This document shows positions 2 through 36,082 of a DNA stretch of 64,000 nt, piece after piece. The translations under genes and the position numbers were made by a program. Source of the DNA: Candidatus Hydrothermarchaeum profundi (lineage in GTDB: Archaea > Hydrothermarchaeota > Hydrothermarchaeia > Hydrothermarchaeales > Hydrothermarchaeaceae); the NCBI GenBank assembly GCA_002011125.2, contig MTMF02000009.1, positions 936,989-1,000,988 of the forward strand. Reading direction: 5' to 3'. Position 1 is the first letter of the stretch. Every line of letters starts with the position of its first letter. The notes under the pieces are model-generated. The model worked only from the letters and a program-made list of their open reading frames with translations, did no database searches and was not told the DNA's origin.

Positions 2-3000
2 AGAGGCTTGGGCACATACAATTATACGTGGGGATCAAGCTCTAACGAAACGCCTGGAGAGTGGACAGTACTAGTTAGAAACCAATCATCGCCAACGGGG
101 TCTATAGTAGCTCAGTTCAAAATATTTGTGCGTGGGCAGTTGAATGTTACTGCGATATCAGTAAACTCCACATCTCCCAGAGTTGGAGATACATTGCTAA
201 TCAATGCAACCCTTAAAGATCATACAAACGCTCTTGTAGGGAGCACCTCTCTTGGTTCTGGGCAGGTTACAGCGTATATTGTTGGGCCAGGAGAAAATTC
301 TGAGGTTGCCCTTTCGGATGCAGATGATGATGGTTACTGGACCGGAGAGTTCACCCCAAATACCTATGGAGATTATATCATTGTCGTCAAAGCAACAGAT
401 GGCCATAATAAGTGGATTGATGGCAGAGGAAGCCAGAAAATAGCAGTCACAGGTAGTTTTCCATCTTCATTTTTCGGGTCACTCTTTAGGGGAATAATAG
501 GATTATTTATCGTTTTTTGGCTGTTGAGGAGTTCTACAAAAAAAAAGTTTAGTATCTTTTTTATTATAGCGTTGCTGATTCTCGTCGGAGGGGTAAGTGC
601 TATAGATACCGGGAGATATAACATATCTAAGCCTAATTTAGAGATAGAAGGCTCTACTACTGCAAATCAACTTGACTCAACAGCGCGGGGATGCATCACT
701 AGTGTAGATAATTCTTCATGCCATCTTAGGGACAATAATTTTGGTACAGGAGACTATCAACAAAGAGGGACAACAGATTTGAGTGGGGTAACTCATCCAG
801 GTGCTAATAGAGATGTAGCAGGTTTTTTTCCAGACTGGGTGCATATGCATCATGGCGGTAGCAATTGGCCGCAGTGGTATTGGGATATAACAGGGACGAC
901 CGGTAACGATGCTAGTGGACTGGCCAATATAACGTCTCCAAGGGTAAGTAGTTTGGCGAAAGGTAATGGCGATGCGCAGATAGGATCTGGCTTTGACGCG
1001 GCATTTAATAGAACGCATTATGATGCAGATAGAGACGCATATGAATCCTTGCCTTTTCTAGGTCAGCCCTACGATATTGGAGGAAATAATCCTCAAATGC
1101 CAAAAAGCTGTACGTATGGCGCACAACCAGCGTTGGGAGGTGTTGCAGAGCCTTTCCCCGATCAAGAATCTCTAGGATGTCACGGTACTAGAGAGTTAGG
1201 AGATACTCTAGCTAGAGATTACCCGAGAAGCGATAATGTGAACTGTACTGATTGTCATGGCTCTATAACCGTTCAAAGCACCAATACGAAGCATGGTAGT
1301 GTTGCAGGTGCAAATTGCACATCATGCCATAATGCATACTATAATAGTAGTGTTTCCAAATACCAGTTAGATGGTTCTACTAATATAACAGTATATTATT
1401 GTGCAAACTCGACTTGCCATCAATCTTCTGTAATTACTCCATTAAACACTTCATATCTACATGCTGGAAGAGACTGCCGCTATTGTCATGGTCATGGCCA
1501 TAATATAACAAGCACACCAAAAAGCACTCCCTCTCTGTGGTGGAATACTACCTGCGGGAGTCAAGACGATACGTGCCATGGTAGCGGGGCGCCTTCTCCG
1601 AGAAATGTAGGTGTAGTGCAACATAATGTGACAAACCCCTTCTCGTCACCGCCCAATTGTACCGATTGCCATTCTTATACTTCGTCTGCTCATAACGTAT
1701 CCTCTATACCAGCATGTAGCAAATGTCACAACACTACTTCTACTTGGGGAAAAGCAAGAGCAAATCAGAGTGTACCCAACTGGATAAGCTCACAGACAAA
1801 TAACATGACTCATGGCGACCTTGGTAGAGGAAATAGAAGCAATCTCTCCTGCAACTTCTGTCATAATGATACTAGCTATCATTTTCCTGGATATAGAAAT
1901 ACCAACTATGAGACACAGGGATGTAATAATACTTTATGTCATGGTAATGCAAGTAGTTCTCTCATGGCAAGCAATCTGACTCAGATAAACCGTAGTCATT
2001 CTAATCTAAATTGCAAAGCATGTCACAACAACCAGACTATTTATAGCGAGTCTAGTAATAAGACTTTGGGACCTATAACTATAGATACGAATATACATGC
2101 AAGTAATTCATCTTGGCTAATACCCTTCAATGTTACTACTAGAGGATATGTTACGAACACAACATGCCTGAACTGCCATAACAACAGAACCTATATAGAT
2201 CAAAGTCTAAATTGCACTGGGTGTCATGGGATAAATGGCAAGTTAAATGTCCATACAGATCTTAATGTTGAAGCAACTGTTGGAGACGGCATCCACAATA
2301 CTGGAGACTGTGGCGCATGCCACGCTGATCCATCAAGAGATATTTTCGTTAATTTTTCTGCGGTGAATGAGAGTGTTCATCGTAACTTGAATGTGAATGC
2401 CTCGAATTCTACGCCTTTGTCTTGGGGTAATGTTACTAAGGCGTGTTGGGCTTGTCATGGTAATGGCTCGCAGCCTAGTGGGCATCCGAGTAATTATAAG
2501 ACGCCTTGGAACTGTACTTATTGTCATACCCGTAATGCCTCTGGTCTGGGTAATTTTTCTGCTCCCTTGGTGTATGAGCATTTTGATAATGAGAGTACGC
2601 TGGTGAATATTGATATTAATGTCTCGGTTGGCTGTGTGGATTGTCATAATAATAGTGTTGTGGATGCTAATGACACCTTGTATAGGTCTATTGTTCAGAC
2701 TGGGAGGTCTAATGTCTCGCATTATGGTTCTAGTAGTGGTCTTTTGCCTGGTGGTCAGCCTTCTCGTAATTGTACGGCTTGTCATAGGAATCAGACTACC
2801 GCGAAGACTTGGGGGATCCGGGATAGGTATCCTTTCACTAATAATATCTTTGGTAATCGTACTATTAGGCATTCTGGGAATGAGACTAACTCTGATGATT
2901 CCACGTATTGTGTGAAGTGTCATAATACTTCTACGTCTTCTTCTGGCTTTTTTGACGGTAGCCCGGATGTGAGCTTGCTTGTTAATCTGCATTCTGAGCA

Positions 3001-5743
3001 GCTTTTTGGGGCTACGCCTCCGGGTAAGGTTGCTAGCGTGCACTTTTATTTTGACTGGGAGGGTGATGATTCTGCTGAGTATCCTCCTGGTAATGGTAGC
3101 GTGGAGAATAAGGCTTATGAGAGTTGTCCGGCTTGTCATAATAATACTGGTCTTACTGGTGAGGGTGCGGATGCTGCTAATGCGAAGGTTTGTGAGGATT
3201 GTCACGTGATTAATGAGTCTCTCGGTAAGCCTAATGGCCCTTATCCTGGCCCTGTTGGGCCTTCGGGTCCCTTGGTGAATAAGTTTGTGTTGAGGTCTGA
3301 TTATGATAATGCCTCTGTTCCTGTGGTGAAGGAGCATATTAACGCTACAGACTACTACACTGGAACCGAGATAAATGTCACTACTAATCTTTCTGAGATA
3401 TTTGGCAGTACCTTGAAGCGTTCTACTTCTTGTGTCGGCTATAATGCTACCTCTGGCGAGGGAAGCTGTCATGGCGTCTCATGGGAGTTTAGGGGTAGTG
3501 CTGGAAGCTTTTTCGCTTTTAATAGGAATAGGAGCGTGAATGAGTCTAATGCTACTTATCATTATCAGCTTATCGTTGACTATTTGCCTGACACCCGGAA
3601 CTGTACCTTCTGCCATCTTAGCACGGATGAGAACCTTAGAAAAGCCTGGGGAAACGCCACATATATACCAAATAGTACTGTTAGGGCTCACAATGAAACA
3701 AGTAATTCTCAGTGCTATGATTGTCATGCAGGTGGAACAGCTCCATATAATTTCCATACTACTTCAGTTAATCCTGGAATAGGTGGGGCAGACTGTGGAT
3801 CAGCAGGGTGCCATGCGGATTCTTCGAAAAATATCTGGGTTAATTTTTCTGCGGTGAATGAGAGTGTTCATCGTAACTTGAATGTGAATGCCTCGAATTC
3901 TACGCCTTTGTCTTGGGGTAATGTTACTAAGGCGTGTTGGGCTTGTCATGGTAATGGCTCGCAGCCTAGTGGGCATCCGAGTAATTATAAGACGCCTTGG
4001 AACTGTACTTATTGTCATACCCGTAATGCCTCTGGTCTGGGTAATTTTTCTGCTCCCTTGGTGTATGAGCATTTTGATAATGAGAGTACGCTGGTGAATA
4101 TTGATATTAATGTCTCGGTTGGCTGTGTGGATTGTCATAATAATAGTGTTGTGGATGCTAATGACACCTTGTATAGGTCTATTGTTCAGACTGGGAGGTC
4201 TAATGTCTCGCATTATGGTTCTAGTAGTGGTCTTTTGCCTGGTGGTCAGCCTTCTCGTAATTGTACGGCTTGTCATAGGAATCAGACTACCGCGAAGACT
4301 TGGGGGATCCGGGATAGGTATCCTTTCACTAATAATATCTTTGGTAATCGTACTATTAGGCATTCTGGGAATGAGACTAACTCTGATGATTCCACGTATT
4401 GTGTGAAGTGTCATAATACTTCTACGTCTTCTTCTGGCTTTTTTGACGGTAGCCCGGATGTGAGCTTGCTTGTTAATCTGCATTCTGAGCAGCTTTTTGG
4501 GGCTACGCCTCCGGGTAAGGTTGCTAGCGTGCACTTTTATTTTGACTGGGAGGGTGATGATTCTGCTGAGTATCCTCCTGGTAATGGTAGCGTGGAGAAT
4601 AAGGCTTATGAGAGTTGTCCGGCTTGTCATAATAATACTGGTCTTACTGGTGAGGGTGCGGATGCTGCTAATGCGAAGGTTTGTGAGGATTGTCACGTGA
4701 TTAATGAGTCTCTCGGTAAGCCTAATGGCCCTTATCCTGGCCCTGTTGGGCCTTCGGGTCCCTTGGTGAATAAGTTTGTGTTGAGGTCTGATTATGATAA
4801 TGCCTCTGTTCCTGTGGTGAAGGAGCATATTAACGCTACAGACTACTACACTGGAACCGAGATAAATGTCACTACTAATCTTTCTGAGATATTTGGCAGT
4901 ACCTTGAAGCGTTCTACTTCTTGTGTCGGCTATAATGCTACCTCTGGCGAGGGAAGCTGTCATGGCGTCTCATGGGAGTTTAGGGGTAGTGCTGGAAGCT
5001 TTTTCGCTTTTAATAGGAATAGGAGCGTGAATGAGTCTAATGCTACTTATCATTATCAGCTTATCGTTGACTATTTGCCTGACACCCGGAACTGTACCTT
5101 CTGCCATCTTAGCACGGATGAGAACCTTAGAAAAGCCTGGGGAAACGCCACATATATACCAAATAGTACTAAGCAGTCACATTCAACATCTCTAACTAAC
5201 ACAGAGTGTTATGGCTGTCATACCGAGGATAATCAAGCCCCATACAATTTCCATAGCGCTACACTAGCAACCACTAATTGTAGAGGATGTCATTTTAGTT
5301 GGACAACCATGAATAATACGAAGAACGCACCTACTAAATACGTCAATCAGACTCTTTTCAATACGAGCGTGCACGGTAATAGTTCTGTGATAGATTGTCA
5401 AGACTGTCATACAGGAAGCCATGGGACCTTTGAATCTGGTGGTGGTCCAGAAGAGTACACCTGGAAGTGGTGTGAATGTTGTCATACGGTTATGCCTACC
5501 TATGCAAATAAAACTCCAATAATTTCAACTGGGATAGGATTGAGACACAATTTGACGCGAAAGCCCCAATACCTCTATTATAATATATCAGGCACACTTC
5601 AAACTCCTCTAGAGATAACGACTTGTACGACTTGTCATGATTCGACGCTTTATAACAACGCTAAGGCTAATTTCAACCGTTCTGCCTCAAAGGATTGTAC
5701 CTACTGCCATCCTTTCCCAGATAAACTGCCAGGAGGGGACTAA
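2..5743 (+). CDS. Giant extracellular multiheme cytochrome c, 5'-truncated by the window edge; N-terminal Ig-like region, two hydrophobic segments, then a heme array
   Basis: Frame is open from position 2, so the true start is probably upstream of the window. By-eye count: 33 CxxCH, 3 CX4CH, 1 CX6CH, 1 CX8CH, 2 CX11CH. Very many N-X-S/T sequons. Confidence 0.92.
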   Translation, partial: RGLGTYNYTWGSSSNETPGEWTVLVRNQSSPTGSIVAQFKIFVRGQLNVTAISVNSTSPRVGDTLLINATLKDHTNALVGSTSLGSGQVTAYIVGPGENSEVALSDADDDGYWTGEFTPNTYGDYIIVVKATDGHNKWIDGRGSQKIAVTGSFPSSFFGSLFRGIIGLFIVFWLLRSSTKKKFSIFFIIALLILVGGVSAIDTGRYNISKPNLEIEGSTTANQLDSTARGCITSVDNSSCHLRDNNFGTGDYQQRGTTDLSGVTHPGANRDVAGFFPDWVHMHHGGSNWPQWYWDITGTTGNDASGLANITSPRVSSLAKGNGDAQIGSGFDAAFNRTHYDADRDAYESLPFLGQPYDIGGNNPQMPKSCTYGAQPALGGVAEPFPDQESLGCHGTRELGDTLARDYPRSDNVNCTDCHGSITVQSTNTKHGSVAGANCTSCHNAYYNSSVSKYQLDGSTNITVYYCANSTCHQSSVITPLNTSYLHAGRDCRYCHGHGHNITSTPKSTPSLWWNTTCGSQDDTCHGSGAPSPRNVGVVQHNVTNPFSSPPNCTDCHSYTSSAHNVSSIPACSKCHNTTSTWGKARANQSVPNWISSQTNNMTHGDLGRGNRSNLSCNFCHNDTSYHFPGYRNTNYETQGCNNTLCHGNASSSLMASNLTQINRSHSNLNCKACHNNQTIYSESSNKTLGPITIDTNIHASNSSWLIPFNVTTRGYVTNTTCLNCHNNRTYIDQSLNCTGCHGINGKLNVHTDLNVEATVGDGIHNTGDCGACHADPSRDIFVNFSAVNESVHRNLNVNASNSTPLSWGNVTKACWACHGNGSQPSGHPSNYKTPWNCTYCHTRNASGLGNFSAPLVYEHFDNESTLVNIDINVSVGCVDCHNNSVVDANDTLYRSIVQTGRSNVSHYGSSSGLLPGGQPSRNCTACHRNQTTAKTWGIRDRYPFTNNIFGNRTIRHSGNETNSDDSTYCVKCHNTSTSSSGFFDGSPDVSLLVNLHSEQLFGATPPGKVASVHFYFDWEGDDSAEYPPGNGSVENKAYESCPACHNNTGLTGEGADAANAKVCEDCHVINESLGKPNGPYPGPVGPSGPLVNKFVLRSDYDNASVPVVKEHINATDYYTGTEINVTTNLSEIFGSTLKRSTSCVGYNATSGEGSCHGVSWEFRGSAGSFFAFNRNRSVNESNATYHYQLIVDYLPDTRNCTFCHLSTDENLRKAWGNATYIPNSTVRAHNETSNSQCYDCHAGGTAPYNFHTTSVNPGIGGADCGSAGCHADSSKNIWVNFSAVNESVHRNLNVNASNSTPLSWGNVTKACWACHGNGSQPSGHPSNYKTPWNCTYCHTRNASGLGNFSAPLVYEHFDNESTLVNIDINVSVGCVDCHNNSVVDANDTLYRSIVQTGRSNVSHYGSSSGLLPGGQPSRNCTACHRNQTTAKTWGIRDRYPFTNNIFGNRTIRHSGNETNSDDSTYCVKCHNTSTSSSGFFDGSPDVSLLVNLHSEQLFGATPPGKVASVHFYFDWEGDDSAEYPPGNGSVENKAYESCPACHNNTGLTGEGADAANAKVCEDCHVINESLGKPNGPYPGPVGPSGPLVNKFVLRSDYDNASVPVVKEHINATDYYTGTEINVTTNLSEIFGSTLKRSTSCVGYNATSGEGSCHGVSWEFRGSAGSFFAFNRNRSVNESNATYHYQLIVDYLPDTRNCTFCHLSTDENLRKAWGNATYIPNSTKQSHSTSLTNTECYGCHTEDNQAPYNFHSATLATTNCRGCHFSWTTMNNTKNAPTKYVNQTLFNTSVHGNSSVIDCQDCHTGSHGTFESGGGPEEYTWKWCECCHTVMPTYANKTPIISTGIGLRHNLTRKPQYLYYNISGTLQTPLEITTCTTCHDSTLYNNAKANFNRSASKDCTYCHPFPDKLPGGD
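2348..3679 (+). repeat. Intragenic direct repeat, copy 1 (1332 bp, 444 codons, 8 CxxCH + 1 CX11CH)
   Basis: gttaatttttctgcggtg...ccaaatagtact recurs at an offset of 1491 bp; no differences seen by eye; all-frame ORF translations match. Confidence 0.95.
3839..5170 (+). repeat. Intragenic direct repeat, copy 2
   Basis: Identical to 2348-3679. Confidence 0.95.
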
Positions 5744-8316: not shown

Positions 8317-9585
8317 ATGTATAATGGAATGACTATTGCTGAAAAAATTCTGGCTAAGAAATCTGGTAAAAAGAAAGTCGAGCCAGGAGAAATAATTGAA
8401 GCTGAGGTAGACTATATAATGGTTAACGATGTCACGGGGCTTCCAGCCTTTGAGGTGTTTGAGAATTTTAACGTTGCGCCATTGAGAGATAAAATCGTAT
8501 TAATACCCGATCATTATGTCCCAAACAAGGATGTTCCTTCTGCAGAGCAAGCTAAAGCTATGCGAATCTTCGCTAAAAAATATAATCTACCCTATTATTA
8601 TGAAGTGGGAAGTAGTGGCGTATGCCATCAGCACATGATAGAAAAGGGATTTGCTGCTCCTGGCAGATTGATAGTGGGAGCAGATTCGCATACATGTTCC
8701 TACGGAGCTCTGGGGGCTTTCTCAACAGGTATAGGCTCTACAGAGGCTGCTTGTGCAATGGCTCTGGGTAACTTATGGTTCCGTGTTCCAGAATCCCAGA
8801 AATTCATTATAGAAGGAAAAACAAGGAAATATGTTATGGGGAAAGACGTGATACTTCATATAATTGGGGATATAGGGGTAGATGGAGCGTTATATAAATC
8901 TATGGAATTCTATGGTTCCACAGTTGAATCATTCCCATTAGCGGATAGAATTTCTATAGCTAATATGACCGTAGAGGCTGGAGCTAAGGCAGGTATTATC
9001 CCTCCAGATAATACAGTATACGAATACTTGAAGGGCAGGGTTATCGGGGAGTATGAACCAGTATTCGCTGATTCAACTGCTGAATATATTGAAACTTTCT
9101 CTTACGATGCCATCGAGATTCCATGTACAGTAGCTAAGCCTTATCTACCGTCTAATATTGCCCCTGCTTCTGAGCTTGGAGACATAACAATCGATCAGGC
9201 ATATCTGGGATCATGCACTAACGGGAGAATAGAGGATCTTAGAATAGCTGCTAAAATTTTGAAGGGGAAAAAAATACACCCAAATGTTAGAATGATAGTA
9301 GTGCCAGCGAGTAAGGAAGTATACGAGCAAGCCTTGGAGGAGGGAATCATTAAAGTTTTCCTAGACGCTAATGCATATGTCTCTGGCCCTACATGTGGCG
9401 CGTGCCTTGGCGGTTATATGGGCGTATTAGCGAGGGGAGAGAGGTGCATTTCTTCGACAAATCGGAATTTTATTGGCAGGATGGGTCATAAAGAAAGCGA
9501 GGTGTATCTCGCTAATCCTGCAGTAGTTGCCGCTAGCGCTATAACAGGTAGGATTACTGATCCCGGAGAGGTTGAGCATGGATAA
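8317..9585 (+). CDS. leuC: 3-isopropylmalate dehydratase large subunit (LeuC/HacA family)
   Basis: MTIAEKILA, DHYVP, GADSHTC, GSCTNGRIEDL, CGACLG, STNRNF; start could be 8317 or 8329. Confidence 0.9.
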   Translation: MYNGMTIAEKILAKKSGKKKVEPGEIIEAEVDYIMVNDVTGLPAFEVFENFNVAPLRDKIVLIPDHYVPNKDVPSAEQAKAMRIFAKKYNLPYYYEVGSSGVCHQHMIEKGFAAPGRLIVGADSHTCSYGALGAFSTGIGSTEAACAMALGNLWFRVPESQKFIIEGKTRKYVMGKDVILHIIGDIGVDGALYKSMEFYGSTVESFPLADRISIANMTVEAGAKAGIIPPDNTVYEYLKGRVIGEYEPVFADSTAEYIETFSYDAIEIPCTVAKPYLPSNIAPASELGDITIDQAYLGSCTNGRIEDLRIAAKILKGKKIHPNVRMIVVPASKEVYEQALEEGIIKVFLDANAYVSGPTCGACLGGYMGVLARGERCISSTNRNFIGRMGHKESEVYLANPAVVAASAITGRITDPGEVEHG

Positions 9586-10069
9586 GATAAGAGGACGTGT
9601 ATGGAAATTTGGGTCTAATGTTGACACTGATCAGATAATACCCGCAGAATACCTTGTTACAGGAGACCCTAAAAAACTTGCAGGACATGCTTTTGAAAAA
9701 GTTAGACCAGACTTCGCTAAAAAAGTAAAAAAAGGGGATATAATAGTTGGAGAAGAAAACTTTGGTTGTGGATCAAGCAGAGAGCATGCTCCGCGGGCTT
9801 TGATTGGATGCGGCATTTCCTGTGTTATTGCTAACTCATTTGCTAGGATATTTTTCAGAAATTCTATAAATATCGGCTTGCCTTTAATTGAGTGCGCCGT
9901 AGAGGCTACTGAGGGGGATATACTTGAGATTGATTTCGAAAACGGCAGGATATTGAATACGAACTCTGGTAGAGAATATCGCTTTAAGCCCTTACCGGAT
10001 TTCTTACTAGATCTTTTAAAGGCCGGAGGGATAGTAGAGTATACTAAAAGAAAATTAGCTAGTAACTAA
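9578..10069 (+). CDS. leuD: 3-isopropylmalate dehydratase small subunit
   Basis: NVDTDQIIP, NFGCGSSREHA, SFARIFFRN; YLVT loop is closer to the IPMI type than to HACN YLRT. Confidence 0.9.
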   Translation: MDKIRGRVWKFGSNVDTDQIIPAEYLVTGDPKKLAGHAFEKVRPDFAKKVKKGDIIVGEENFGCGSSREHAPRALIGCGISCVIANSFARIFFRNSINIGLPLIECAVEATEGDILEIDFENGRILNTNSGREYRFKPLPDFLLDLLKAGGIVEYTKRKLASN

Positions 10070-10528
10070 CTCAGTATACAATCTCGGTTCTATATTTTCC
10101 TCTGTGTAGCCGAGTGTCTTGATAAATCTAATTAAATCTCTTTTCCTGTGTTTCTCCGTACTTATGATTTCAAAATCAGCAAAACAGCCTGCCCCCTCTA
10201 CTTCATTCAATTCGATAGTTATATCCCCGTAGCGGTAAATTTTTCTTGTTTTTCTTACTACTACAAGCTCTTCAAATCCCAGTTTTTTTAAAATAGCTAA
10301 GAGTCCAACTTTTTCTCCTACCTCCACCTCTATTTCTCTAAAAAGAGTGTTTTCTCTGTCTATAATCTCTTTATACCCAAGAAAATATCTCCCCTCTACC
10401 TCTCTAATCCTAAGAAGCTTTCGATCAGGCATTTTAAAATAGGTGTCAATTTGCCTCTCTGACCTGATAAACGTGGCAAAAGATATTTTCTTTTCTAGTT
10501 CTTCTATACTTCGAAGCCTTATTTTCAC
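10055..10528 (-). CDS. CYTH-domain protein (class IV adenylyl cyclase/triphosphatase-like)
   Basis: QIDTYF, LRIRE, EIEVEV, VRKTRKIY, ELNEVEGAG.F..FE; N-terminal ExExK motif not evident. Confidence 0.75.
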   Translation of the reverse strand: MKIRLRSIEELEKKISFATFIRSERQIDTYFKMPDRKLLRIREVEGRYFLGYKEIIDRENTLFREIEVEVGEKVGLLAILKKLGFEELVVVRKTRKIYRYGDITIELNEVEGAGCFADFEIISTEKHRKRDLIRFIKTLGYTEENIEPRLYTELVTS

Positions 10529-11589
10529 TTCAATCTCGATTGGATCGCCTTTATGAATTCCTCTACCTCCTCTTTCGTATTATAAAAATGGGGAGATACT
10601 CGAACATAATCATCTTTTTTTGTTACCACGAATTTTTTTGGAATTTTAAAGTCATACTTAAATGAAAAAATTCCAGAGGTATTCTCAGGGGTTAATCTAT
10701 TTTCTAAGTTCTCATGAAAGATTTGCGTCAAGGATAAGACTCTTTTCTTGATCTTTTTAATTCCTATGGAAAATAGATATTCCAAAGCAGCCTTATAACC
10801 AAAAATACTGGCATGACAAGGAGTCCCAATTTCGAATTTTTTAGCGCCTTCAGCGGGCTCATATTCTAATTTGAAGTCAAAGGGATTTCTAGCGGATTTC
10901 CATCCGATATACGGAGGCTCAAACATATCTGTTAGCTCTTTCCGGATATAAAGCACACCAACTCCAGATGGACCAAGTTGCCATTTATAGGCTCCAGATG
11001 ATAAAAAATCTATTTTGGCTTTTTTTACATCCACCTCTAGGACTCCCATAGATTGGATAGCATCTACGAAAAAATAGATGTCTTTCTCTTCGCATAGCTC
11101 ACCCAAAGCTTCAATATCATGGGCGAAACCATTTTTATAGGAAACATGACTCACAGACAAAACCTTAGTGTTTTCGTTAATCTCTTTCTCGAAATCTTCT
11201 AAATCTATCCTCCCCTTCTTTGATCTTACAACTTTATACCTAAACTTCATCCAAGGATAAGTATTAGATGGAAACTCCAAGTCATTAAGTAATACCTCTC
11301 CTTTGCCTTTTAATCCAAGCATATTTGCTACTATATTTATTCCTTCTGATGTGCTGCCCACTAACGCTATCTCGCTGACATCAGCATTCAAAAGTCTTGC
11401 AATCAATTTTTTTGTTTTTCGTGCAACTTCATGCCAGCGCTTGTAGTAGAGGCCGCCATATTTTCTGGTTTCATAGTATTCTTGAACTGCTTCTATAACA
11501 GGCAAGGGTAATGGAGACGTAGCAGCGTTATTTAGGTAAACGTATTCCTTTGTAACAGGAAAATCTTCTCTTATCTTCTCAATATCCAT
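10525..11589 (-). CDS. Class V PLP aminotransferase / cysteine desulfurase-like protein
   Basis: YLNNAATSP, VDAIQSMG, SGAYKWQLGP, RVSPHFYNT. Confidence 0.85.
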   Translation of the reverse strand: MDIEKIREDFPVTKEYVYLNNAATSPLPLPVIEAVQEYYETRKYGGLYYKRWHEVARKTKKLIARLLNADVSEIALVGSTSEGINIVANMLGLKGKGEVLLNDLEFPSNTYPWMKFRYKVVRSKKGRIDLEDFEKEINENTKVLSVSHVSYKNGFAHDIEALGELCEEKDIYFFVDAIQSMGVLEVDVKKAKIDFLSSGAYKWQLGPSGVGVLYIRKELTDMFEPPYIGWKSARNPFDFKLEYEPAEGAKKFEIGTPCHASIFGYKAALEYLFSIGIKKIKKRVLSLTQIFHENLENRLTPENTSGIFSFKYDFKIPKKFVVTKKDDYVRVSPHFYNTKEEVEEFIKAIQSRLK

Positions 11590-11683
11590 TTAACCACATT
11601 TTCTTTATTTCTTGCACCGGTTAGAGTAATATATATAAGTAAGAGCAATATAATATCTTTCGGAAATATTTGGAGGCAAAATT

Positions 11684-12823
11684 ATGAAAGTTCTTGTCTT
11701 AGGATTAGGTCAAGCTGGCGGTAAAATAGCCGACCTGTTTTTAATGGATGACCGGAAAAGTCATGTCCCTCATACTTTCGAGGCTATCGCCGTTAACACA
11801 GCGATTTCGGATTTAATGGGTCTACAATATATACCCCAAGAGGATAGGATATTGCTTGGGGAAACAGCTGTAAAGGGTCATGGCGTGGGGGCAGATAATA
11901 AAAAAGGAGCTGAGATAGCCGAGGATGAGGCGGAGATTGTCTTAAACAGAATTTCTAAAACTAATGTTAGCAACATAGATGCTTTTTTTATAATTGCAGG
12001 CCTAGGAGGAGGTACAGGTAGCGGAGCGATATCAGTTATAACAAAACATCTCAAGAAGGTATATGACGAGCCAGTATATGCTATAGGCATTCTTCCAGCT
12101 GAAAATGAAGGCGACATTTATACACTCAACTCAGCGAGAAGTTTGAAGGCGCTTCTCCCGGTAGCAGATGCTACGATTCTCGTTGATAATGGGGCGTTCC
12201 TTAGGTCAGGTGAAAGTGTTAGAGAAGCCTATGATAGAATAAATGCAGAAATTGTTAAGAGGATAGGAATTCTGTGCAGGTCAGGAGAAATTAGGTCCCG
12301 AAAACAGGTAGGGGAGATGGTAGTTGACGCTGCTGAGGTTATAAATACATTCAGAGCGGGGGGAATATGTAGTATTGGATATGCGTCAGAGATGGTCAAA
12401 CGTGAAGGACTTTTCACAAGGATGTTCAAAAAGAAGCAGTATGAGATAGGCAAAGCTTCTAGGATACTATCTGTTACGAAAAGGGCAGTAAAAGGAAGGT
12501 TGCTTCTACCATGCGATTATAAAACAGCTAACAAGGCGTTGATAATCATAGCCGGGCCTCCCAGCCAGTTAGATAGAAAAGGAATCGAAAAAGCTAGAGA
12601 ATGGCTAGAGAACACTATAGCAGGTTCTGAAGTACGGGGAGGAGACTACCCACTTCCTAAGAGTAATTACGTTGGTTGTGTTGTACTGCTAGCTGGAGTA
12701 GCTAATGCTCCACGAGTTAAATCAATGCTAGAGAAGGCAAGATATGTCCAAGAGAAAATAGGAGAGGAGCCTGAGCGAGAAAAAGACCTGGACTATCTCT
12801 TAGGTGAGATAGACAATCTCTAG
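11684..12823 (+). CDS. cetZ: Tubulin/FtsZ superfamily protein, CetZ type
   Basis: GLGQAGGKIAD, KGHGVGADN, GLGGGTGSG, T7 VVDAAEVINT, amphipathic GLFTRMF loop, EVRGGDYP. Confidence 0.9.
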   Translation: MKVLVLGLGQAGGKIADLFLMDDRKSHVPHTFEAIAVNTAISDLMGLQYIPQEDRILLGETAVKGHGVGADNKKGAEIAEDEAEIVLNRISKTNVSNIDAFFIIAGLGGGTGSGAISVITKHLKKVYDEPVYAIGILPAENEGDIYTLNSARSLKALLPVADATILVDNGAFLRSGESVREAYDRINAEIVKRIGILCRSGEIRSRKQVGEMVVDAAEVINTFRAGGICSIGYASEMVKREGLFTRMFKKKQYEIGKASRILSVTKRAVKGRLLLPCDYKTANKALIIIAGPPSQLDRKGIEKAREWLENTIAGSEVRGGDYPLPKSNYVGCVVLLAGVANAPRVKSMLEKARYVQEKIGEEPEREKDLDYLLGEIDNL

Positions 12824-12824
12824 G

Positions 12825-13838
12825 GTGTATGGAATGCTCTCTTTGGTAGGAGTGGGAGGCGCCGGATGTAATATAATCGAGGCCTTCTACAGAAAAGACC
12901 TTATCAGCACTATCATTAGTAAAATTGGCGGAGAGGGATATGTCAGAGGGGTTGCTATCGACACTTCAGAGAGCATCGCTAATCTAAATTCTATTCCAAC
13001 TCAAAATCGAGTACTAATAGGAAGTAGTCGCGCAAAGGGTCATGGCACTGGGGGGAGCGTTGAATTAGGTAGAAAGATAATGAGCGAAGAATCAGAGCTG
13101 GCGATGAGTGCTATACGCAGGGCCAACGTAGAAAAGCCGGAGATATTCTTCATAGTAGCGGGCTTAGGTGGGGGAACAGGCACCGGAGGATTGCCAATTC
13201 TAATTGAAAGGATAAAGGTCACTTATCATGTGCCAATTATAGGCGTGCTGATTCTCCCTTCTAGGAGTGAGGGCACCTTATACATGAAGAATGCTTTCCA
13301 AAACTTTGATGCCATAAGCAATGCACTCGATGGAACGATAGTGTTAGATAATAATGTTCTCACTAATAGAGGAGAGGATATCCTTAACTGCTACAAGATA
13401 GTTAATGATGCTATTTTTAATTTTCTAAGCGTGATAGACCCTGTGTATATCCTAAGGGCTACTAGAGAAAAAATATCTACGATAGGGTTTATGAGGACTA
13501 AAGTGGCTAGAATTTCCATTAAAGAGTTGCTGGATAAAATGTTGAGAGACTACGTCTATTTCTCTATAGAAGATAAAAAAATAGATGAGATGCATCTAAT
13601 ACTAAACGGGGATATGGGTAAAGTGTATGGCCAGAGTTTTGCGCAGAAGTGGGTGAAAGAAAATTTTGACGTAGATGTGAATCTAGCTTTAAAGGATGAG
13701 CCGAATTCTAAATATTTAAATACTGGGTTGATTATTACAGGATTAAAGGATATTACCCAAGGTTTTAAAGTGGAAGAAGAAAAGAAAATCCCATCAGAAC
13801 TGGAAGACTTGTTGGGCGACATTAAGCCATTATTCTAG
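12825..13838 (+). CDS. Divergent tubulin/FtsZ/CetZ-like protein 2
   Basis: GVGGAGCNI, KGHGTGG, GLGGGTGTG, LDN; shortened and degenerate T7/C-terminal region. Confidence 0.85.
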   Translation: MYGMLSLVGVGGAGCNIIEAFYRKDLISTIISKIGGEGYVRGVAIDTSESIANLNSIPTQNRVLIGSSRAKGHGTGGSVELGRKIMSEESELAMSAIRRANVEKPEIFFIVAGLGGGTGTGGLPILIERIKVTYHVPIIGVLILPSRSEGTLYMKNAFQNFDAISNALDGTIVLDNNVLTNRGEDILNCYKIVNDAIFNFLSVIDPVYILRATREKISTIGFMRTKVARISIKELLDKMLRDYVYFSIEDKKIDEMHLILNGDMGKVYGQSFAQKWVKENFDVDVNLALKDEPNSKYLNTGLIITGLKDITQGFKVEEEKKIPSELEDLLGDIKPLF

Positions 13839-13846
13839 GAGGTAGG

Positions 13847-14662
13847 ATGATGAAGAAGATTTTGATATTCCTATTACTCGCTTCCCTTGCTCTAAGTACT
13901 GTAAGTGCTCAGATCCCAGACTACCTTAGAGCAGTTTCTTCAGATGTTTCTCCTTCTGTTCAAGCCCGGATGGGGCAACCTGTAGCGGCTTCTATGATAC
14001 TCAAAAGAGTTGGGATAGTTCCAGATGAGGCTAAATTAAATGTAACGGTAGACCTTGTTGCTCCTAGAGTAGAAGTTAGAATTGACCAGAATTACGAGGT
14101 ATTTGGCATTAATCAATTTGAAGTTCCTCTCCCGCCTGATGGTGTGGATGAAGTGGAAATAAGAGTTAGTGGATACGCGCCTTCAGTTGAGAAGGAGTCA
14201 AAGATTAGAGCGTTAGAAGTTAAAACATATGTTAAATATAAGGGTGAGGAAGGGGTATACCAGGACGATGGAAGCCTAACATTAACGGTGACAACGAAGG
14301 AAATAAAAGAAACACTCTTGGTGTTAGAGGACGCTAAAACTCTCCTTGCTCAGGCAGAGTCAAAGATAAATGATCTTAAACAAAAGGGAGTTAATACCGC
14401 AGAGTTGGAAGCCGATTTAATTAATGCTAAGGAGCAGATATCTAGGTCAGAGGCAGAGCATGAAAAAGGTGATATAGATAATGCTAAGTTTTTAGCAGAG
14501 CAGGCCAAAAAAGATCTGCAGGATATTATAAGTAGAGCGGAGGAAATGGGGGCAGGACCCGCTCCAGTGGACATAAAAAGGTATTTGACGATTGGTGCAG
14601 CGATCGTTGTCATACTAATAATAGCGTTTTACATTAGAGGTAGAAGAGAAGAGCTTGGATAA
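13847..14662 (+). CDS. Secreted, C-terminally membrane-anchored protein of unknown function
   Basis: Signal peptide ending VSA, beta-rich domain, helical/coiled-coil stretch, TM helix, tail RGRREELG; SD GGAGG. Confidence 0.8.
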   Translation: MMKKILIFLLLASLALSTVSAQIPDYLRAVSSDVSPSVQARMGQPVAASMILKRVGIVPDEAKLNVTVDLVAPRVEVRIDQNYEVFGINQFEVPLPPDGVDEVEIRVSGYAPSVEKESKIRALEVKTYVKYKGEEGVYQDDGSLTLTVTTKEIKETLLVLEDAKTLLAQAESKINDLKQKGVNTAELEADLINAKEQISRSEAEHEKGDIDNAKFLAEQAKKDLQDIISRAEEMGAGPAPVDIKRYLTIGAAIVVILIIAFYIRGRREELG

Positions 14663-14807
14663 CTTTTGAGTATCATTCAATTTTTAATCTCAGCAGCTTT
14701 CCAAAGAACTGTAATTGCCTTTTTTCACTTATTACCTAGGTGATAGCATAATTTTAAGAAAAGCTTGATTAGTATATATTACTTGTTTGTAAAATATTCA
14801 AACCTAA

Positions 14808-15527
14808 ATGGTTTTAGCTATGGGACAACCAGTCCTCTCCCTTATAATCCCCCTCTATAATGAGGAAAAAAGAATAAAAAATGTCCTTGAAAGATATGTT
14901 AAGTTTTTGGACAAAGAATTTGATAACTACGAGGTAATCGGGGTTTGCAATGGATGTACTGATAGTACTCCTAGTATAGTAAGGGAGTTTGGTAGACGGA
15001 ATAGTAGAGTTAAATGCCTACAATTTAAAGACAAGCTTGGCAAGGGAGGGGCAATATTAGAAGGTTTTAAGCTAGCCAAGGGAGAATATATTGGTTTTAT
15101 AGACGCTGATGATAGTGTCGCCCCTACTGAATTTAAAAAATTGATATCGGCATTAACTAATGCAGATGGGGCTATTGCTTCAAGAAGAATAAAAGGGTCC
15201 ATAATTCAAATTAGACAATCCCTGGTAAGAAGGATTTCAAGTAAAATCTTTAATATTCTTGTTAGACTTATTTTCAGACTTAATTTTATGGATACTCAAT
15301 GTGGAGCCAAGGTATTTAAGAAAGAGGCGGTTTTGAGTATTCTCCCAACGATGGTGCTAAAAGGATTTGAGTTTGATGTCGAGCTATTATGGAGGATGGT
15401 TAATAAAGGTTATAGAATTAAGGAGATTCCCATTGTTTGGAAACAATCTCCAGGATCTAGGTTTAGTTTAAAATATGCTCCATCGATGTTTTTTAACCTA
15501 CTTAAGTTAAGACTAGGTGCATGGTAA
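14808..15527 (+). CDS. GT2 glycosyltransferase (dolichyl-phosphate glycosyltransferase-like)
   Basis: SLIIPLYNEE, GKGGA, FIDAD, DTQCGAK, FEFDVELL. Confidence 0.9.
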   Translation: MVLAMGQPVLSLIIPLYNEEKRIKNVLERYVKFLDKEFDNYEVIGVCNGCTDSTPSIVREFGRRNSRVKCLQFKDKLGKGGAILEGFKLAKGEYIGFIDADDSVAPTEFKKLISALTNADGAIASRRIKGSIIQIRQSLVRRISSKIFNILVRLIFRLNFMDTQCGAKVFKKEAVLSILPTMVLKGFEFDVELLWRMVNKGYRIKEIPIVWKQSPGSRFSLKYAPSMFFNLLKLRLGAW

Positions 15528-15639
15528 AAAGGAAAGCATTATGGAGTTTAAGTCTAAATATTTAAATATCTCGGAATCCTAGAAAATTGCCGTTATCCTA
15601 ATTAAGGCACTGCTAAAGAAACTTAAGAGAGGAGTTTAA

Positions 15640-16794
15640 GTGAAACCATTCATAATTGGCATTGGAAGAGCAGGTTGTAGAATAGCGAACTTACTCCTAA
15701 CCAAGGGGTACAATGGTATCCTAGCAGATACAGAAAAGTCGGATTTACTCTTTTTTCCTTATAGATACAAAATCTTGTTAGGGGAAAAAATACTAGATGG
15801 AAATGGCACTGGCGGGGATATCGATATTGGAAGAGAAGTACTCGAATTAGAAAAATATAACATCATAGATCGTATCGACTCAATCAAAGATTCTATGGAT
15901 TGCATCTTTGTGATATCTGCGATGGGAGGTGGAACTGGAGGCGCGGTCGATATCCTCATAGATGAACTTAAGAAAAGTTATATGGAGCCTATTTATTATG
16001 CTGGAGTGCTTCCTTCCGTAGAGGACCCCTCTGAAATATTGGCTAATTTTTCAGATAATCTAAAGCGAATTGCGCCAATGAGCCATGGTTTTCTCCCGAT
16101 AGACAATGACCACATCAAGGGAAAAATGAGACTAAGAGGATGGTATAATCATATAAATAGCAAGATTTCAAGGTACCTACTCGACCTCTTCAAGGTTGGG
16201 GATTATAGATCTAGGGATGAGTTAGGTGAAAATGTTTTGGGAACAACAGATGTAATTAATACCTTTAAGGGTATCAGTAGTATTGGTATAGGACTTCATG
16301 AAGTTAAGGATGAGGGATTTGGATTCTTTAGACATACGAGTAGTGAAGATAAGCCTGAAATTGTTATCGCTTTAACAGAGAAGGCTGTAAGTAATACATT
16401 AATTTCGGTTGATATCTCTGAAACGAGAAAGGCTCTAGTCGTAGTTTATGGCCCGAGAAAGTACCTTGACTTTTTAGGAAGTATCCCCGCAAGATTATGG
16501 GTTGAAAAAAATATAGGTGGAGTAGAAGTGAGAGGAGGCGACATACCTTGGTCTGAGAAAAAAGACTTAGAGGTCATGGTACTACTCTCAGCTATCAAAA
16601 AAAATGATAGGCTTAAGTATCTCTACCAGCTGGGGAAGATTCAGAAAAATCGAGACGAATATATAGATAAAATAACCAAACTATACGATAAGCTCAAAAA
16701 CATGGAATCTAAGTTTATAGAGATTGAAGAGGATTTTAAGGAGATATATGAAGACTTAAAGAAAATAGAGGAACCGCGAGAAGAGTCATCTTAA
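15640..16794 (+). CDS. Divergent tubulin/CetZ-like protein 3 with C-terminal coiled coil
   Basis: GIGRAGCRI, GNGTGGD, AMGGGTGG, IDN, LGTTDVINT, EVRGGDIP. Confidence 0.85.
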   Translation: MKPFIIGIGRAGCRIANLLLTKGYNGILADTEKSDLLFFPYRYKILLGEKILDGNGTGGDIDIGREVLELEKYNIIDRIDSIKDSMDCIFVISAMGGGTGGAVDILIDELKKSYMEPIYYAGVLPSVEDPSEILANFSDNLKRIAPMSHGFLPIDNDHIKGKMRLRGWYNHINSKISRYLLDLFKVGDYRSRDELGENVLGTTDVINTFKGISSIGIGLHEVKDEGFGFFRHTSSEDKPEIVIALTEKAVSNTLISVDISETRKALVVVYGPRKYLDFLGSIPARLWVEKNIGGVEVRGGDIPWSEKKDLEVMVLLSAIKKNDRLKYLYQLGKIQKNRDEYIDKITKLYDKLKNMESKFIEIEEDFKEIYEDLKKIEEPREESS

Positions 16795-17232
16795 TTTCAT
16801 CAACATTTCGGTGATGTTATCAAGAGTCTGTATCAAGTCATCTATGTAGTGGGGAAGCACATCCCGGATTGTAACAATACCTACAAGCCTGCTCCCCTCT
16901 ACAACAGGCAGTCTTCTTATACCTTTTTTTATCATTAGAGCCGCAGCATCACCTAAATCGGAGTTTTTATCGATAGAGATAATAGGCGTGGTCATTATAC
17001 TTGTAATACTGTCGTTTAAATCCCTCTGTCTAGCGATAACTTTTTTTAGAAAATCTTTTTCGGTTACAATGCCTACCGGAGAGTTATCTTCTATGATAAT
17101 GATACACCCAATATCATTTTCATCCATTTTCTTAGCGGCTTCGAGTAAAGAGGCGTGGCTTGAAATAGTAACTACCTCTTTTACCATTATCTTCTCAATC
17201 GTTGAATTTTTGACAAGCAATTCAGTATTCAT
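16786..17232 (-). CDS. CBS-pair protein
   Basis: Two CBS repeats (VGIVTEKD; IRRLPVV...VGIVTIRD). Confidence 0.88.
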   Translation of the reverse strand: MNTELLVKNSTIEKIMVKEVVTISSHASLLEAAKKMDENDIGCIIIIEDNSPVGIVTEKDFLKKVIARQRDLNDSITSIMTTPIISIDKNSDLGDAAALMIKKGIRRLPVVEGSRLVGIVTIRDVLPHYIDDLIQTLDNITEMLMKLR

Positions 17233-17360
17233 ATCATCAGTAAGCTAAGGTATTAACTGCTCCATGATATAAACTTTTTGAGAAGAATCTAACTCAACTA
17301 AATTACTCTAGTTACTATTCAGGTACTTAGTAAACTCATTTTAATATTTTTATATTTTTT

Positions 17361-17409
17361 CAGAAATCTTTATAAGGTTAAAAGGAATTCCCTCAAAGGA
17401 GGAAAAAAT
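17361..17409 (+). promoter_or_regulatory. Putative BRE/TATA promoter and strong SD in front of the leuA leader
   Basis: cagaaa-tc-TTTATAA at ~17361-17375; AGGAGG at 17397-17402. Confidence 0.55.
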
Positions 17410-17442
17410 ATGAAAGGACGGGATTACGTTCTACATGATTAA
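17410..17442 (+). CDS. Putative leader peptide MKGRDYVLHD upstream of leuA
   Basis: AGGAGGAAAAAAT-ATG; 10 codons then TAA. Confidence 0.45.
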   Translation: MKGRDYVLHD

Positions 17443-17458
17443 CAAGTCTAGGAAGGGT

Positions 17459-18967
17459 ATGAATCTCCCAAAATCTGTTAAGATTTTTGATACTACGTTG
17501 AGGGATGGGGAACAGACGCCCAGTGTGGCATTAACGGTTGGAGAAAAAGTTACGATTGCTAGACAGCTTGATAAGCTTGGAGTAGATATAATAGAAGCAG
17601 GTTTTCCTATCTCTTCAAAGGGAGAAAAAAAAGCTGTTTCGAAAATAGCTGAAGAAGGATTGACTTCAAAGGTATGTGGCTTATCTAGAGTGTTAACCAA
17701 TGATATAGACGCTTGCTTAGACTGCGATGTTGACATGGTTCATACGTTTGTATCTACCTCAGATATTCAACTTGAGCACACACTGAAGAAAAGCAAAGAA
17801 GAAGTTCTGCAGATGGCTGTAAACGCCGTTTCCTATATCAAAGATCATGGAGTAGAATGTCTTTTCTCCGCAATGGATGCGACTAGAACTGATGTAGATT
17901 ATTTGATTAAAATTTATAAAGCTGTGGAAGAGGCTGGGGCGGACATAATAAACATACCTGATACAGTGGGAGTCATGATTCCTCCAGCTATGAGACTTTT
18001 GACTAGTGAGGTATATAACGCAGTAAAAATACCGATTGATGTACATTGCCATAATGATTTTGGCCTTGCTGTGGCTAATAGTCTAGCAGCGGTTGAAGCT
18101 GGGGCTAGTGAGGTGCAGTGTACCATTAATGGTTTAGGTGAAAGGGCAGGAAACGCGGACTTAGAGGAGATTGTAATGAGCCTTACCTCAATTTATGGAG
18201 TAAAGACAAATATTAAGACCCAGTATCTGTTTGAGACTTCCAAGCTTGTAGAAAGACTTACGGGTGTAAAGATGCCTCCTAACTTCCCTATAGTAGGGGA
18301 AAACGCATTTTCTCATGAATCAGGTATCCATACACATGGAGTGATTTCCAAAGCAGAAACGTTTGAGCCGGGGCTTATGACCCCTGAGATGGTAGGCCAT
18401 AAGCGAAGAATAGTTTCAGGAAAACATGCAGGAACGCATGGAGTGTTAGCAATGCTAGAAGAAATGGGGGTCAAAGTGAATGAAGAAATGCTCAGAGAAA
18501 TTACAATGAGAGTGAAGGACTTAGGTGACAAGGGTAAGCGTGTTACTGACGCTGATCTCAAAGCTATAGCTGAAGCGGTTATGGGAGAAGTCGAAAAAGA
18601 AAAGAAAATAGTTGACTTGAAGGAGTTAGCGGTGATGACGGGGAATATGGTACTTCCTACTGCTAGTGTGAAATTGAGATTTAAAGACAAAGAGTTAGTT
18701 GGTGCGGATATTGGAGTTGGACCCGTGGATGCAGCTCTTAATGCAGTAAGAAGAGTTGTAAAAGGTGTTGAGGATATTAAACTTACAGAATATAATCTAG
18801 AGGCTATAACTGGGGGGTCAGATGCTCTTGCGGAAGTCCTAGTGAAATTGGAAGATAGCAAGGGAAATGTTGTAACTGGTAGAGCAGCTAGAGAGGATAT
18901 CGTAATGGCGTCTGTAGAGGCAATGATATCCGGGATAAATAGGATTTTCTTATTAAGAGAAAAATAG
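17459..18967 (+). CDS. leuA: 2-isopropylmalate synthase (archaeal type)
   Basis: DTTLRDGEQ, HCHNDFG, GERAGN, HESGIHTHG, C-terminal regulatory domain GPVDA; alternative start at 17435. Confidence 0.85.
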   Translation: MNLPKSVKIFDTTLRDGEQTPSVALTVGEKVTIARQLDKLGVDIIEAGFPISSKGEKKAVSKIAEEGLTSKVCGLSRVLTNDIDACLDCDVDMVHTFVSTSDIQLEHTLKKSKEEVLQMAVNAVSYIKDHGVECLFSAMDATRTDVDYLIKIYKAVEEAGADIINIPDTVGVMIPPAMRLLTSEVYNAVKIPIDVHCHNDFGLAVANSLAAVEAGASEVQCTINGLGERAGNADLEEIVMSLTSIYGVKTNIKTQYLFETSKLVERLTGVKMPPNFPIVGENAFSHESGIHTHGVISKAETFEPGLMTPEMVGHKRRIVSGKHAGTHGVLAMLEEMGVKVNEEMLREITMRVKDLGDKGKRVTDADLKAIAEAVMGEVEKEKKIVDLKELAVMTGNMVLPTASVKLRFKDKELVGADIGVGPVDAALNAVRRVVKGVEDIKLTEYNLEAITGGSDALAEVLVKLEDSKGNVVTGRAAREDIVMASVEAMISGINRIFLLREK

Positions 18968-34273: not shown

Positions 34274-34274
34274 A

Positions 34275-36058: not shown

Positions 36059-36082
36059 TTCAATAATATTTAATCTTTCGAG

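Follow-up and report, generated by a model that had tools for sequence, protein, structure and literature searches.

A putative four-gene CetZ module of divergent tubulin-family proteins and a membrane protein in Hydrothermarchaeota

A 64,000-nucleotide stretch of the Candidatus Hydrothermarchaeum profundi genome (contig MTMF02000009.1, positions 936,989 to 1,000,988), hereafter the window, carries three tubulin-family genes, which we call P1, P2 and P3. They are grouped with a gene for a membrane protein (M) and a gene for a family-2 glycosyltransferase (GT2). We propose that P1, P2, M and P3 form a conserved CetZ module, in which a filament is combined with a one-sided subunit (P2), a modified subunit (P3) and a membrane link (M). 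The probability of this reading is roughly 0.45. Judged from sequence comparison, P1-P2-M-P3 appears to be the conserved unit, of which GT2 is probably not a conserved member. The module elaborates the CetZ system in a lineage-specific way and is undescribed in the literature searched. An earlier note on this DNA had also taken the cluster to be undescribed, and no description of P1-P2-M-P3 was found in the full texts searched; supplementary trees lay outside the search and might show the paralogues.

The gene order was also found at a second locus, L001. There, P1 occupies positions 8354-9499, P2 9509-10525 and M 10541-11359, and P3 runs from 11375 to the contig end. The spacers are 9-15 nt long, and no GT2 lies between M and P3. 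The identities between L001 and the window were 82.6% for P1, 50.5% for P2, 37.0% for M and 50.6% for P3. The flanking genes of L001 encode translation factors, unlike the leucine and isoleucine-valine biosynthesis genes that flank the cluster in the window. Because the flanks differ, P1-P2-M-P3 are considered to travel as a unit. Locus tags were compared in the seven metagenome-assembled genomes (MAGs) that carry both P2 and P3 locus tags. Exactly one gene lies between P2 and P3 in four of them (V3R93, GXO65, QF673 and ACE5HY), and M adjoins P2 in one, V3T58. The earlier note had grouped the paralogues with a membrane-anchored surface protein, and M does lie between P2 and P3 in both the window and L001. 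It had also counted GT2 as a cluster member. This part was not borne out: GT2 is absent in L001, and the four MAGs leave room for one gene only between P2 and P3.

The P2, M and P3 profiles were searched over the open reading frames (ORFs) of 80 loci. Three tubulin-family ORFs together with an M-like ORF were found in L001 only, and in the other FtsZ/CetZ loci neither an M-like ORF nor three tubulin-family ORFs occurred (0/79). The sole other locus with more than one tubulin-family ORF was L012 from Candidatus Methanoperedens nitroreducens. Its tubulin-family ORFs (9800-10930 and 16496-17665) are on the same strand and 5.5 kb apart, with no M-like ORF. In L001, four packed ORFs of 255, 215, 120 and 296 aa lie just upstream of P1 (5571-8256, + strand). 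They have no assigned function, and the region 5' of P1 in the window contains nothing that corresponds to them.

The P2 family comprised 86 clusters, after which the scores dropped from E=4e-60 to 8e-30. A search of the P2 profile against 1.84 billion representatives returned five full-length and five fragmentary P2-type proteins. The next matches were CetZ proteins that aligned over positions 1-203 (the N-domain) only, and most of the 80 Pfam-scanned matches, out of 150 listed, carried CetZ_C. The P3 family comprised 108 clusters and graded into P1-type CetZs without a sharp score gap. The homologue search for M gave 25 relatives, and the Atlas cluster of M has 70 members, 97% of them archaeal and mostly from Hydrothermarchaeota. 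The named sources of P2, P3 and M were nearly always Hydrothermarchaeota. The other source labels were Candidatus Pyrohabitans, the generic 'Euryarchaeota', 'Methanobacteriota' and 'archaeon', and one 'archaeon BMS3Abin16'.

P1 is an ordinary CetZ1-type protein with all of the Haloferax features tied to GTP-dependent polymerisation. Pfam recognised the Tubulin domain (PF00091) at 105.4 bits (cut-off 33) and the CetZ_C domain (PF21011) at 218.7 bits (cut-off 21.6). P1 matched the Haloferax volcanii CetZ of PDB 4b46 over residues 1-374 (E=1.3e-106). The motifs that had been read in P1 all align with CetZ counterparts in 4b46: the T4 loop is GGGTGSG, the T7 loop VVDAAEV stands opposite VVDSSEI, and the hydrophobic M-loop tip GLFTRMF stands opposite GGLLSRL. 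The C-terminal tail, DLDYLLGEIDNL, includes LLGEIDNL and has a hydrophobic, acidic motif at its end. The catalytic T7 position is E in all seven P1 orthologues. P1 therefore has both of the CetZ1 subfamily traits, a long M-loop whose tip is hydrophobic or amphipathic and a conserved hydrophobic tail, and the two features of P1 singled out by the earlier note are known CetZ1 traits. In the available text of a study of H. volcanii CetZ1 (10.1101/2024.04.08.588506), the long, hydrophobic-tipped M-loop is the mark of the CetZ1 subfamily, the M-loop tip and the conserved C-terminal tail were needed for rod development, and the T7 mutant E218A formed hyperstable polymers. NCBIfam searches with P1, P2 and P3 gave FtsZ matches only, all far below threshold, whereas the Pfam scores of the three proteins greatly exceed what chance would produce.

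P2 is the candidate one-sided subunit. Its Tubulin domain was recognised by Pfam at 114.5 bits (cut-off 33), and no Pfam match to CetZ_C (PF21011) was obtained at E≤0.1. The T4 loop is GGGTGTG, with each position kept in 84-86 of the 86 relatives. The sequence alignment of P2 to CetZ structures ends at about residue 204, just short of the suspected T7 loop, and the assignment of T7 was made from family alignment and a structure model. In the AlphaFold2 model of P2, built with 50 relatives (predicted local distance difference test, pLDDT, 87.9; predicted template-modelling score 0.86), helix H7 spans residues 183-200 and helix H8 residues 203-210 in the 334-aa numbering, and D202 and Y205 lie at the H7/H8 junction. 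The hhalign comparison of the P2 and P3 families (99.9% probability, 287 columns, columns 3-309, both domains) placed D202 and Y205 opposite G201 and D204 of P3, which are the two T7 positions. A T7 loop with its second acid lost had been assigned by eye, and both hhalign and the model upheld it, together with the intact GGGTGTG. P2 also has a 17-residue deletion right before T7 and lacks a long M-loop in the hhalign comparison with P3 and in the model, so that the reported absence of a GLFTRMF-type loop is correct. The best fold matches of the model were CetZ1 (4b46, over 330 columns) and CetZ2 (4b45), both with a template-modelling (TM) score of 0.77; FtsZ structures gave TM scores of 0.6-0.7. 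According to the model, P2 keeps the full two-domain CetZ fold.

The catalytic T7 position of P2 is Tyr (Y205) in the window. The 86 relatives show E (28), D (24), a gap (12), H (5), L (4), T (4), Y (2) and R (2) there, with five relatives not itemised. An acid is thus present in 52/86, compared with 107/108 in the P3 family, 50/53 in CetZ_C representatives and 13/14 in FtsZ_C. In a sliding-window analysis of conservation, no window of P2 scored lower than the 13-residue T7-H8 segment (0th percentile), whereas the T1, T3 and T4 loops were at the 96-100th percentile. The T7-H8 segment is at the 57th percentile in P3 and at the 80th in CetZ generally. Because the nucleotide face and the tail are conserved and T7-H8 is unconstrained, we believe that P2 may act as an end subunit.

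The tail of P2, SELEDLLGDIKPLF, has the family consensus SELExLLxDIxPLx and is among the best conserved parts of P2; the majority of its 14 positions score 0.8-1.0 in conservation (full range 0.49-1.00). The tails of P1 and P2 are alike in the window, as had been pointed out before, and the likeness also holds in L001. An N-terminal amphipathic insert had been proposed for P2 as well. The segment concerned, DLISTIISKIG, sits in the H1-S2 loop, where P2 is seven residues longer than CetZ1 and where the model is uncertain (residues 25-35). Its aliphatic pattern is conserved at positions 23, 24, 27, 28 and 31; the loop is also extended in CetZs. With a hydrophobic moment of 0.56, the segment does not rank with the most amphipathic stretches of P2, and its amphipathic character is read solely from the conserved i, i+1, i+4, i+5, i+8 pattern.

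P3 is a CetZ-like protein in which a different part of the GTPase is modified. Pfam gave 56.4 bits for Tubulin (cut-off 33) and 97.8 bits for CetZ_C (cut-off 21.6), HMMER aligned P3 to 4b45 and 4b46 over the full length, and the CetZ_C hallmark EVRGGD is present. The T4 loop reads GGGTG-GA and is one residue shorter than in CetZ; the signature GGGTG[ST]G is not matched by P3. The shortened loop, which had been seen in the window, is kept in 105/108 relatives and is gapped in the other three. The T7 loop VLGTTDV stands opposite VVDTSEV/VVDSSEI. The first Asp is replaced by Gly, as had been reported, and the catalytic position is Asp. In the 108 relatives, the first position is G (52), D (16), S (15), T (13), N (5) or A (5), with two relatives not itemised, and the catalytic residue is D (102), E (5) or V (1). 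On this alignment, the T7 loop of P3 is not defective at the catalytic position. The possibility that the nucleotide face of P3 is unused was dropped, since T1 and T4 are at the 97th conservation percentile.

In P3, the CetZ tail is replaced by a putative C-terminal helix, some 45 aa long, that shows heptad spacing. An extension of about 45-60 residues past CetZ_C was present in all of the 50 aligned relatives (50/50), and its hydrophobic residues follow a 3-4 heptad spacing in the 50-sequence alignment, read by eye. From this spacing we infer that the tail is a coiled coil, as the earlier note had supposed. The M-loop tip of P3 is FGFF (residues about 224-230), which is hydrophobic and lies where CetZ1 has its LLSRL tip. 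FGFF-like motifs are kept in the P3 relatives with long loops, and a subgroup with short loops is without them. Another subgroup of P3 proteins, P0148-P0154, is 410-419 aa long and has an additional C-terminal extension; two of the three P3s that lie away from P2 by locus tags belong to it. These proteins may be a relocated or a second P3 copy.

The membrane protein M was modelled by AlphaFold2 (pLDDT 87.5) with a signal helix at residues 2-14, a beta-sandwich at 26-148, three long helices at 150-234 and a transmembrane helix at 242-269. The cytoplasmic tail is RGRREELG-COOH. In the 24 relatives compared, the C-terminus is REELG in 22, KEELG in one and REEL, one residue short, in one. Because a surface ectodomain is combined with an invariant five-residue cytoplasmic C-terminus, M is a candidate link to the envelope. 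M had no Pfam or NCBIfam family, with a sub-threshold match to DUF4398 only. Among solved structures, its fold matched nothing more specific than generic sandwiches of the Ig-like, adhesin or TRAP-beta type (TM≤0.34), and the M profile gave only chance-level helical matches among PDB sequences. Look-alikes from Methanobacteriota in the Atlas (score 0.90, TM 0.55-0.61) are leads only. NCBIfam includes models of archaeosortase/exosortase-type sorting signals, in which a signature tripeptide precedes the transmembrane helix and a basic tail follows. A role of the M tail as such a signal (PGF-CTERM type) was considered and rejected: no NCBIfam match was obtained at E≤0.1, and the tail has an acidic EELG end after basic residues, unlike the basic tail of a sorting signal. 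The complex prediction of P2, P3 and M residues 236-270 scored 0.00 and was made without controls, so it speaks neither for nor against binding.

An N-x-S/T sequon was found at one alignment column of M in 18/24 relatives. The GT2 protein matched Pfam Glycos_transf_2 at 94.7 bits, and its NCBIfam matches, to AglJ and a dolichyl-phosphate hexose transferase, were sub-threshold only. Given the conserved sequon and the adjoining AglJ/dolichyl-phosphate-like GT2, which is found in the window only, M may be N-glycosylated. The TRAP-beta-type fold matches of the M beta-sandwich have a parallel elsewhere in the window, where a 927-aa protein (43316-46099, - strand) carries DUF11, CARDB and TRAP_beta domains; it is probably a large surface protein.

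The careful tree was computed with IQ-TREE under LG+C20+F+G4 (posterior mean site frequency, PMSF) from 76 rows, after 29 of 105 rows (25 CetZ_C, 1 FtsZ_C and 3 without a C-domain match) had been dropped for long branches or redundancy. It contained no labelled FtsZ1, FtsZ2, TubZ, artubulin or OdinTubulin references. The CetZ-like rows, a 61-row clade that includes P1, P2 and P3, were split from the FtsZ_C proteins at 100/99. The Pfam Tubulin scores support the earlier view of three divergent tubulin/CetZ paralogues. The P2 family was monophyletic (100/99, stem 0.76). Together with one long-branched row it was sister to a 46-row clade (93/93) that holds P1, P3 and all other CetZ_C proteins bar one outlier. 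P1 fell inside the canonical CetZ clade (99/98), and the P3 family was monophyletic (100/100, stem 1.03) inside the 46-row clade at an unresolved position. The quick tree (105 rows, LG+G4) gave the same picture. The trees indicate that P2 and P3 are not recent copies of P1 and that each is a separate deep CetZ-like family. The stems are long, and the basal placement of P2 must be taken with care. The protein P0329 (398 aa, Tubulin domain only, very long branch) was placed as the sister of the P2 family (98/53) and may be a remote P2-like lineage that lies outside the family, or a long-branch artefact.

On these data, a mechanism can be proposed. P1, possibly with P3, would form a dynamic filament. 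P2 would dock via its nucleotide face on the filament end that exposes T7, taking the T7 loop of its neighbour, and would present no working T7 face to the next subunit, which would make it a built-in end subunit. Alternatively, P2 could be a partner silent in hydrolysis, through which the length and turnover of filaments are set. P3 might co-polymerise, nucleate, dimerise, bundle or anchor filaments through its coiled coil, and the (R/K)EELG tail of M is a candidate docking peptide by which filaments in the cytoplasm would be coupled to the cell surface. The complete version of this scheme is a polar multi-component filament with a body of P1, an end of P2 attached via its GTP face only, nucleation, bundling or anchoring by the coiled coil of P3, and docking to the envelope by M; as a whole, we regard it as doubtful.

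If true, the system would be an independently arisen prokaryotic counterpart of the tubulin split into lattice, non-hydrolysing and end-specialised subunits, wired to the surface. P2 would be a naturally occurring tubulin-family subunit in which the constraint on one polymerisation face has been lifted. The module gives concrete candidates for the missing membrane partner and the accessory subunits of CetZ, a family that shapes archaeal cells. Filament polarity, capping and envelope coupling would become testable with four small proteins, and the system would bear on the ways in which tubulin paralogues can evolve to divide labour.

Several points weigh against the module. Among the 80 loci kept, only L001 could be read as orthologous DNA (one true orthologue). 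In three of the seven MAGs (ACE5G7, V3T58 and ACE5J5), P3 lies away from P2. Matching longest-contig values are a proxy for linkage only: the P2 and P3 tables have 21 such values in common, 11 of them ≤10 kb, and M has nine in common with P2 and five with P3 (all counted by eye). With an acid at the catalytic position in 52 of the 86 relatives, some P2 proteins may be active. P3 appears to carry no mark of one-sidedness, its nucleotide loops being well conserved, and it may be expressed separately in the window, given that GT2 and P3 have AT-rich upstream boxes of their own. In the available text of Brown and Duggin 2023 (PMC9856176), haloarchaeal CetZ paralogues are not known to co-polymerise. 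Finally, we infer the interactions among P1, P2, P3 and M throughout.

The alternative that survives best is that P1, P2 and P3 are independent CetZ paralogues, each with its own homopolymer for a separate job, as is supposed for haloarchaeal CetZ1-6, which are grouped only by ancestry or shared regulation, and that M is unrelated and co-transcribed. Halobacterial genomes commonly carry more than one CetZ paralogue, according to the available text of PMC9856176, and P3 could polymerise alone, with its catalytic acid and nucleotide loops conserved; the separation of P3 from P2 in three MAGs and the separate upstream boxes of GT2 and P3 would also be expected. Independent paralogues are harder to reconcile with T7-H8 as the least conserved segment of P2, which is an ill fit for a self-polymerising GTPase, and with the 9-15 nt spacers of P1-P2-M-P3 in L001. 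The named sources of P2, P3 and M are nearly all Hydrothermarchaeota, and the invariant cytoplasmic tail of M implies a specific cytoplasmic partner. We consider this alternative somewhat unlikely.

P2 could also be a non-polymerising, GTP-binding regulator or sequesterer of P1/P3 monomers, M or the membrane, acting via its H1-S2 segment and tail; it would then govern the time and place of filament formation while staying outside the filament. A conserved GTP pocket and tail with an unconstrained T7-H8 segment, the amphipathic pattern conserved at positions 23, 24, 27, 28 and 31 and the lack of a long M-loop are all consistent with such a role. Against it, the model of P2 keeps the two-domain CetZ fold (TM 0.77), and the tail that it has in common with P1 suggests the same partner or lattice site. 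A capper and a sequesterer are indistinguishable from sequence alone; a non-polymerising role as regulator or sequesterer seems quite improbable to us.

The earlier note had favoured complementary T7 defects in P2 and P3. In that case, the proteins would form an obligate heterodimer or heteropolymer like alpha/beta-tubulin, in which GTP is hydrolysed at some interfaces only. Such a division is found in alpha/beta-tubulin, BtubA/B and the Asgard AtubA/B, where one of the paralogous subunits is without the catalytic T7 residue; alpha-tubulin has the catalytic Glu at this T7 position. P2 in the window has Tyr where CetZ1 has E218, P3 is without the first T7 Asp, and the P1 and P2 genes are 1-10 nt apart. 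The P2 half of the claim therefore holds in the window: on proper alignment, P2 has Tyr at the catalytic position. The P3 half does not, because P3 retains Asp there and an acid is found in 107/108 relatives, which leaves no complementary defect. Nor is the Tyr fixed in the P2 family (Y in 2/86, D/E in 52/86). A buried interface of the beta-tubulin type should be conserved; the non-catalytic T7 face of beta-tubulin is both conserved and buried, whereas T7-H8 of P2 is at the 0th percentile. Btub and Atub chains were weak PDB matches of P1 and P2, and unlike tubulins proper, P1, P2 and P3 all fall in the CetZ-like clade. An obligate heterodimer or heteropolymer of this kind is thus very improbable. 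The idea that relaxed selection has left P2 and P3 to decay as duplicates without a specific function would fit their faster evolution relative to P1 (about 50% versus 82.6% identity between the window and L001) and is hardly credible in view of full-length open ORFs in 86 (P2) and 108 (P3) clusters, 28 (P2) and 26 (P3) invariant columns in 50-sequence alignments, and family-specific traits that are themselves conserved, such as the short T4 of P3 (105/108) and the tail of P2.

Compared with H. volcanii CetZ1 and CetZ2 (4b46 and 4b45), P1 is alike in T4, in the D..E pattern of T7, in the hydrophobic M-loop tip and in the tail. P3 is alike by its CetZ_C domain and full-length alignment and differs by its shorter T4 and by the predicted coiled coil that replaces the tail. 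The P2 model fits CetZ1 best, and P2 differs by lacking the Pfam CetZ_C match, the pre-T7 linker and the M-loop. In the available text of PMC9856176, no haloarchaeal cetZ gene is reported to stand in tandem with divergent paralogues and with a membrane protein of its own, the cetZ neighbourhoods described are type IV pili and epimerases, and Hydrothermarchaeota are unmentioned. Santana-Molina et al. 2023 noted the presence of CetZ in Hydrothermarchaeota and no more, as far as the available text goes (PMC9871819).

FtsZ subunits with a blocked bottom face cap filaments, shortening them and altering their turnover, according to the available text of 10.1101/2020.02.25.965095. P2 is predicted to act like such bottom cappers (MciZ-bound FtsZ and bottom-face mutants), as a functional analogy only. 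The FtsZ cappers depend on a peptide inhibitor or on laboratory mutants, whereas P2 would be a paralogue that the genome itself encodes for the purpose. The archaeal FtsZ1/FtsZ2 system, in which the membrane tether SepF is recognised via a short conserved C-terminal peptide in the available text of PMC8187382, likewise combines tubulin-family paralogues with a membrane tether. It differs in that its paralogues are FtsZ_C proteins and those of the window are CetZ-like, and in that here the membrane protein, M, also ends in an invariant peptide and has a large ectodomain. A further likeness concerns the overall architecture of M. The S-layer stalk protein SlaB of Sulfolobales has a signal peptide, beta-sandwich domain(s), a long helical stalk and a C-terminal transmembrane anchor. 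M is much smaller and has a predicted three-helix bundle, and no sequence or fold match to SlaB was obtained. To our knowledge, SepF has no ectodomain, and we know of no invariant cytoplasmic tail in SlaB.

The features of the cluster are listed in Table 1.

Table 1. Features of the tubulin-family gene cluster in the window
Feature	Position	Strand	Description
Promoter/ribosome-binding site region	11628..11683	+	Probable, by sequence reading; TATA-like AT-rich box taatatatataag and GGAGG
P1	11684..12823	+	379 aa; CetZ1-type tubulin-like GTPase
P2	12825..13838	+	337 aa from GTG, 334 aa from probable start ATG 12834; CetZ-like, divergent
M	13847..14662	+	270-271 aa; predicted type-I membrane protein, signal peptide and one transmembrane helix
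GT2	14808..15527	+	239 aa; soluble family-2 glycosyltransferase inside the module, own AT-rich upstream box
P3	15640..16794	+	384 aa; CetZ-like, divergent

The five ORFs P1, P2, M, GT2 and P3 lie across 11684-16794. Upstream of P1, the TATA-like box is about 45-55 nt 5' of the ATG and the GGAGG is 8 nt 5' of it; this probable promoter region was read straight from the sequence. P2 had been reported to start 1 nt after P1. A GTG does stand there (12825), 1 nt past the P1 stop. The start is probably the ATG at 12834, because the family starts with MLSLVG and the database copy is 334 aa long; this ATG is 10 nt past the P1 stop and has GGTG just 5' of it. The GT2 and P3 genes are preceded by spacers of 145 nt and 112 nt, respectively. 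Because both spacers carry AT-rich boxes, the arrangement suggests that GT2 is an insertion that split the operon in the window. A class-V aminotransferase gene lies 5' of P1 on the opposite strand. At the other end, a gene for a CBS-pair protein (16786-17232, - strand) converges on P3, and the 3' ends overlap by 9 nt.

The PADLOC scan of the five proteins gave no matches and hence no sign of a defence system, and the Rfam scan of the entire window also gave none. Elsewhere in the window, a run of five genes (32938-36871, + strand) encodes products in which CBS domains are the sole content. The region 2-5743 (+ strand, 5' end open) encodes a giant multihaem cytochrome that exceeds 1,913 aa and combines cytochrome c7/c3 repeats with a domain resembling MtrC/MtrF. 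A second multihaem cytochrome is encoded at 47860-49251. The giant cytochrome suggests that extracellular electron transfer may take place in this archaeon.

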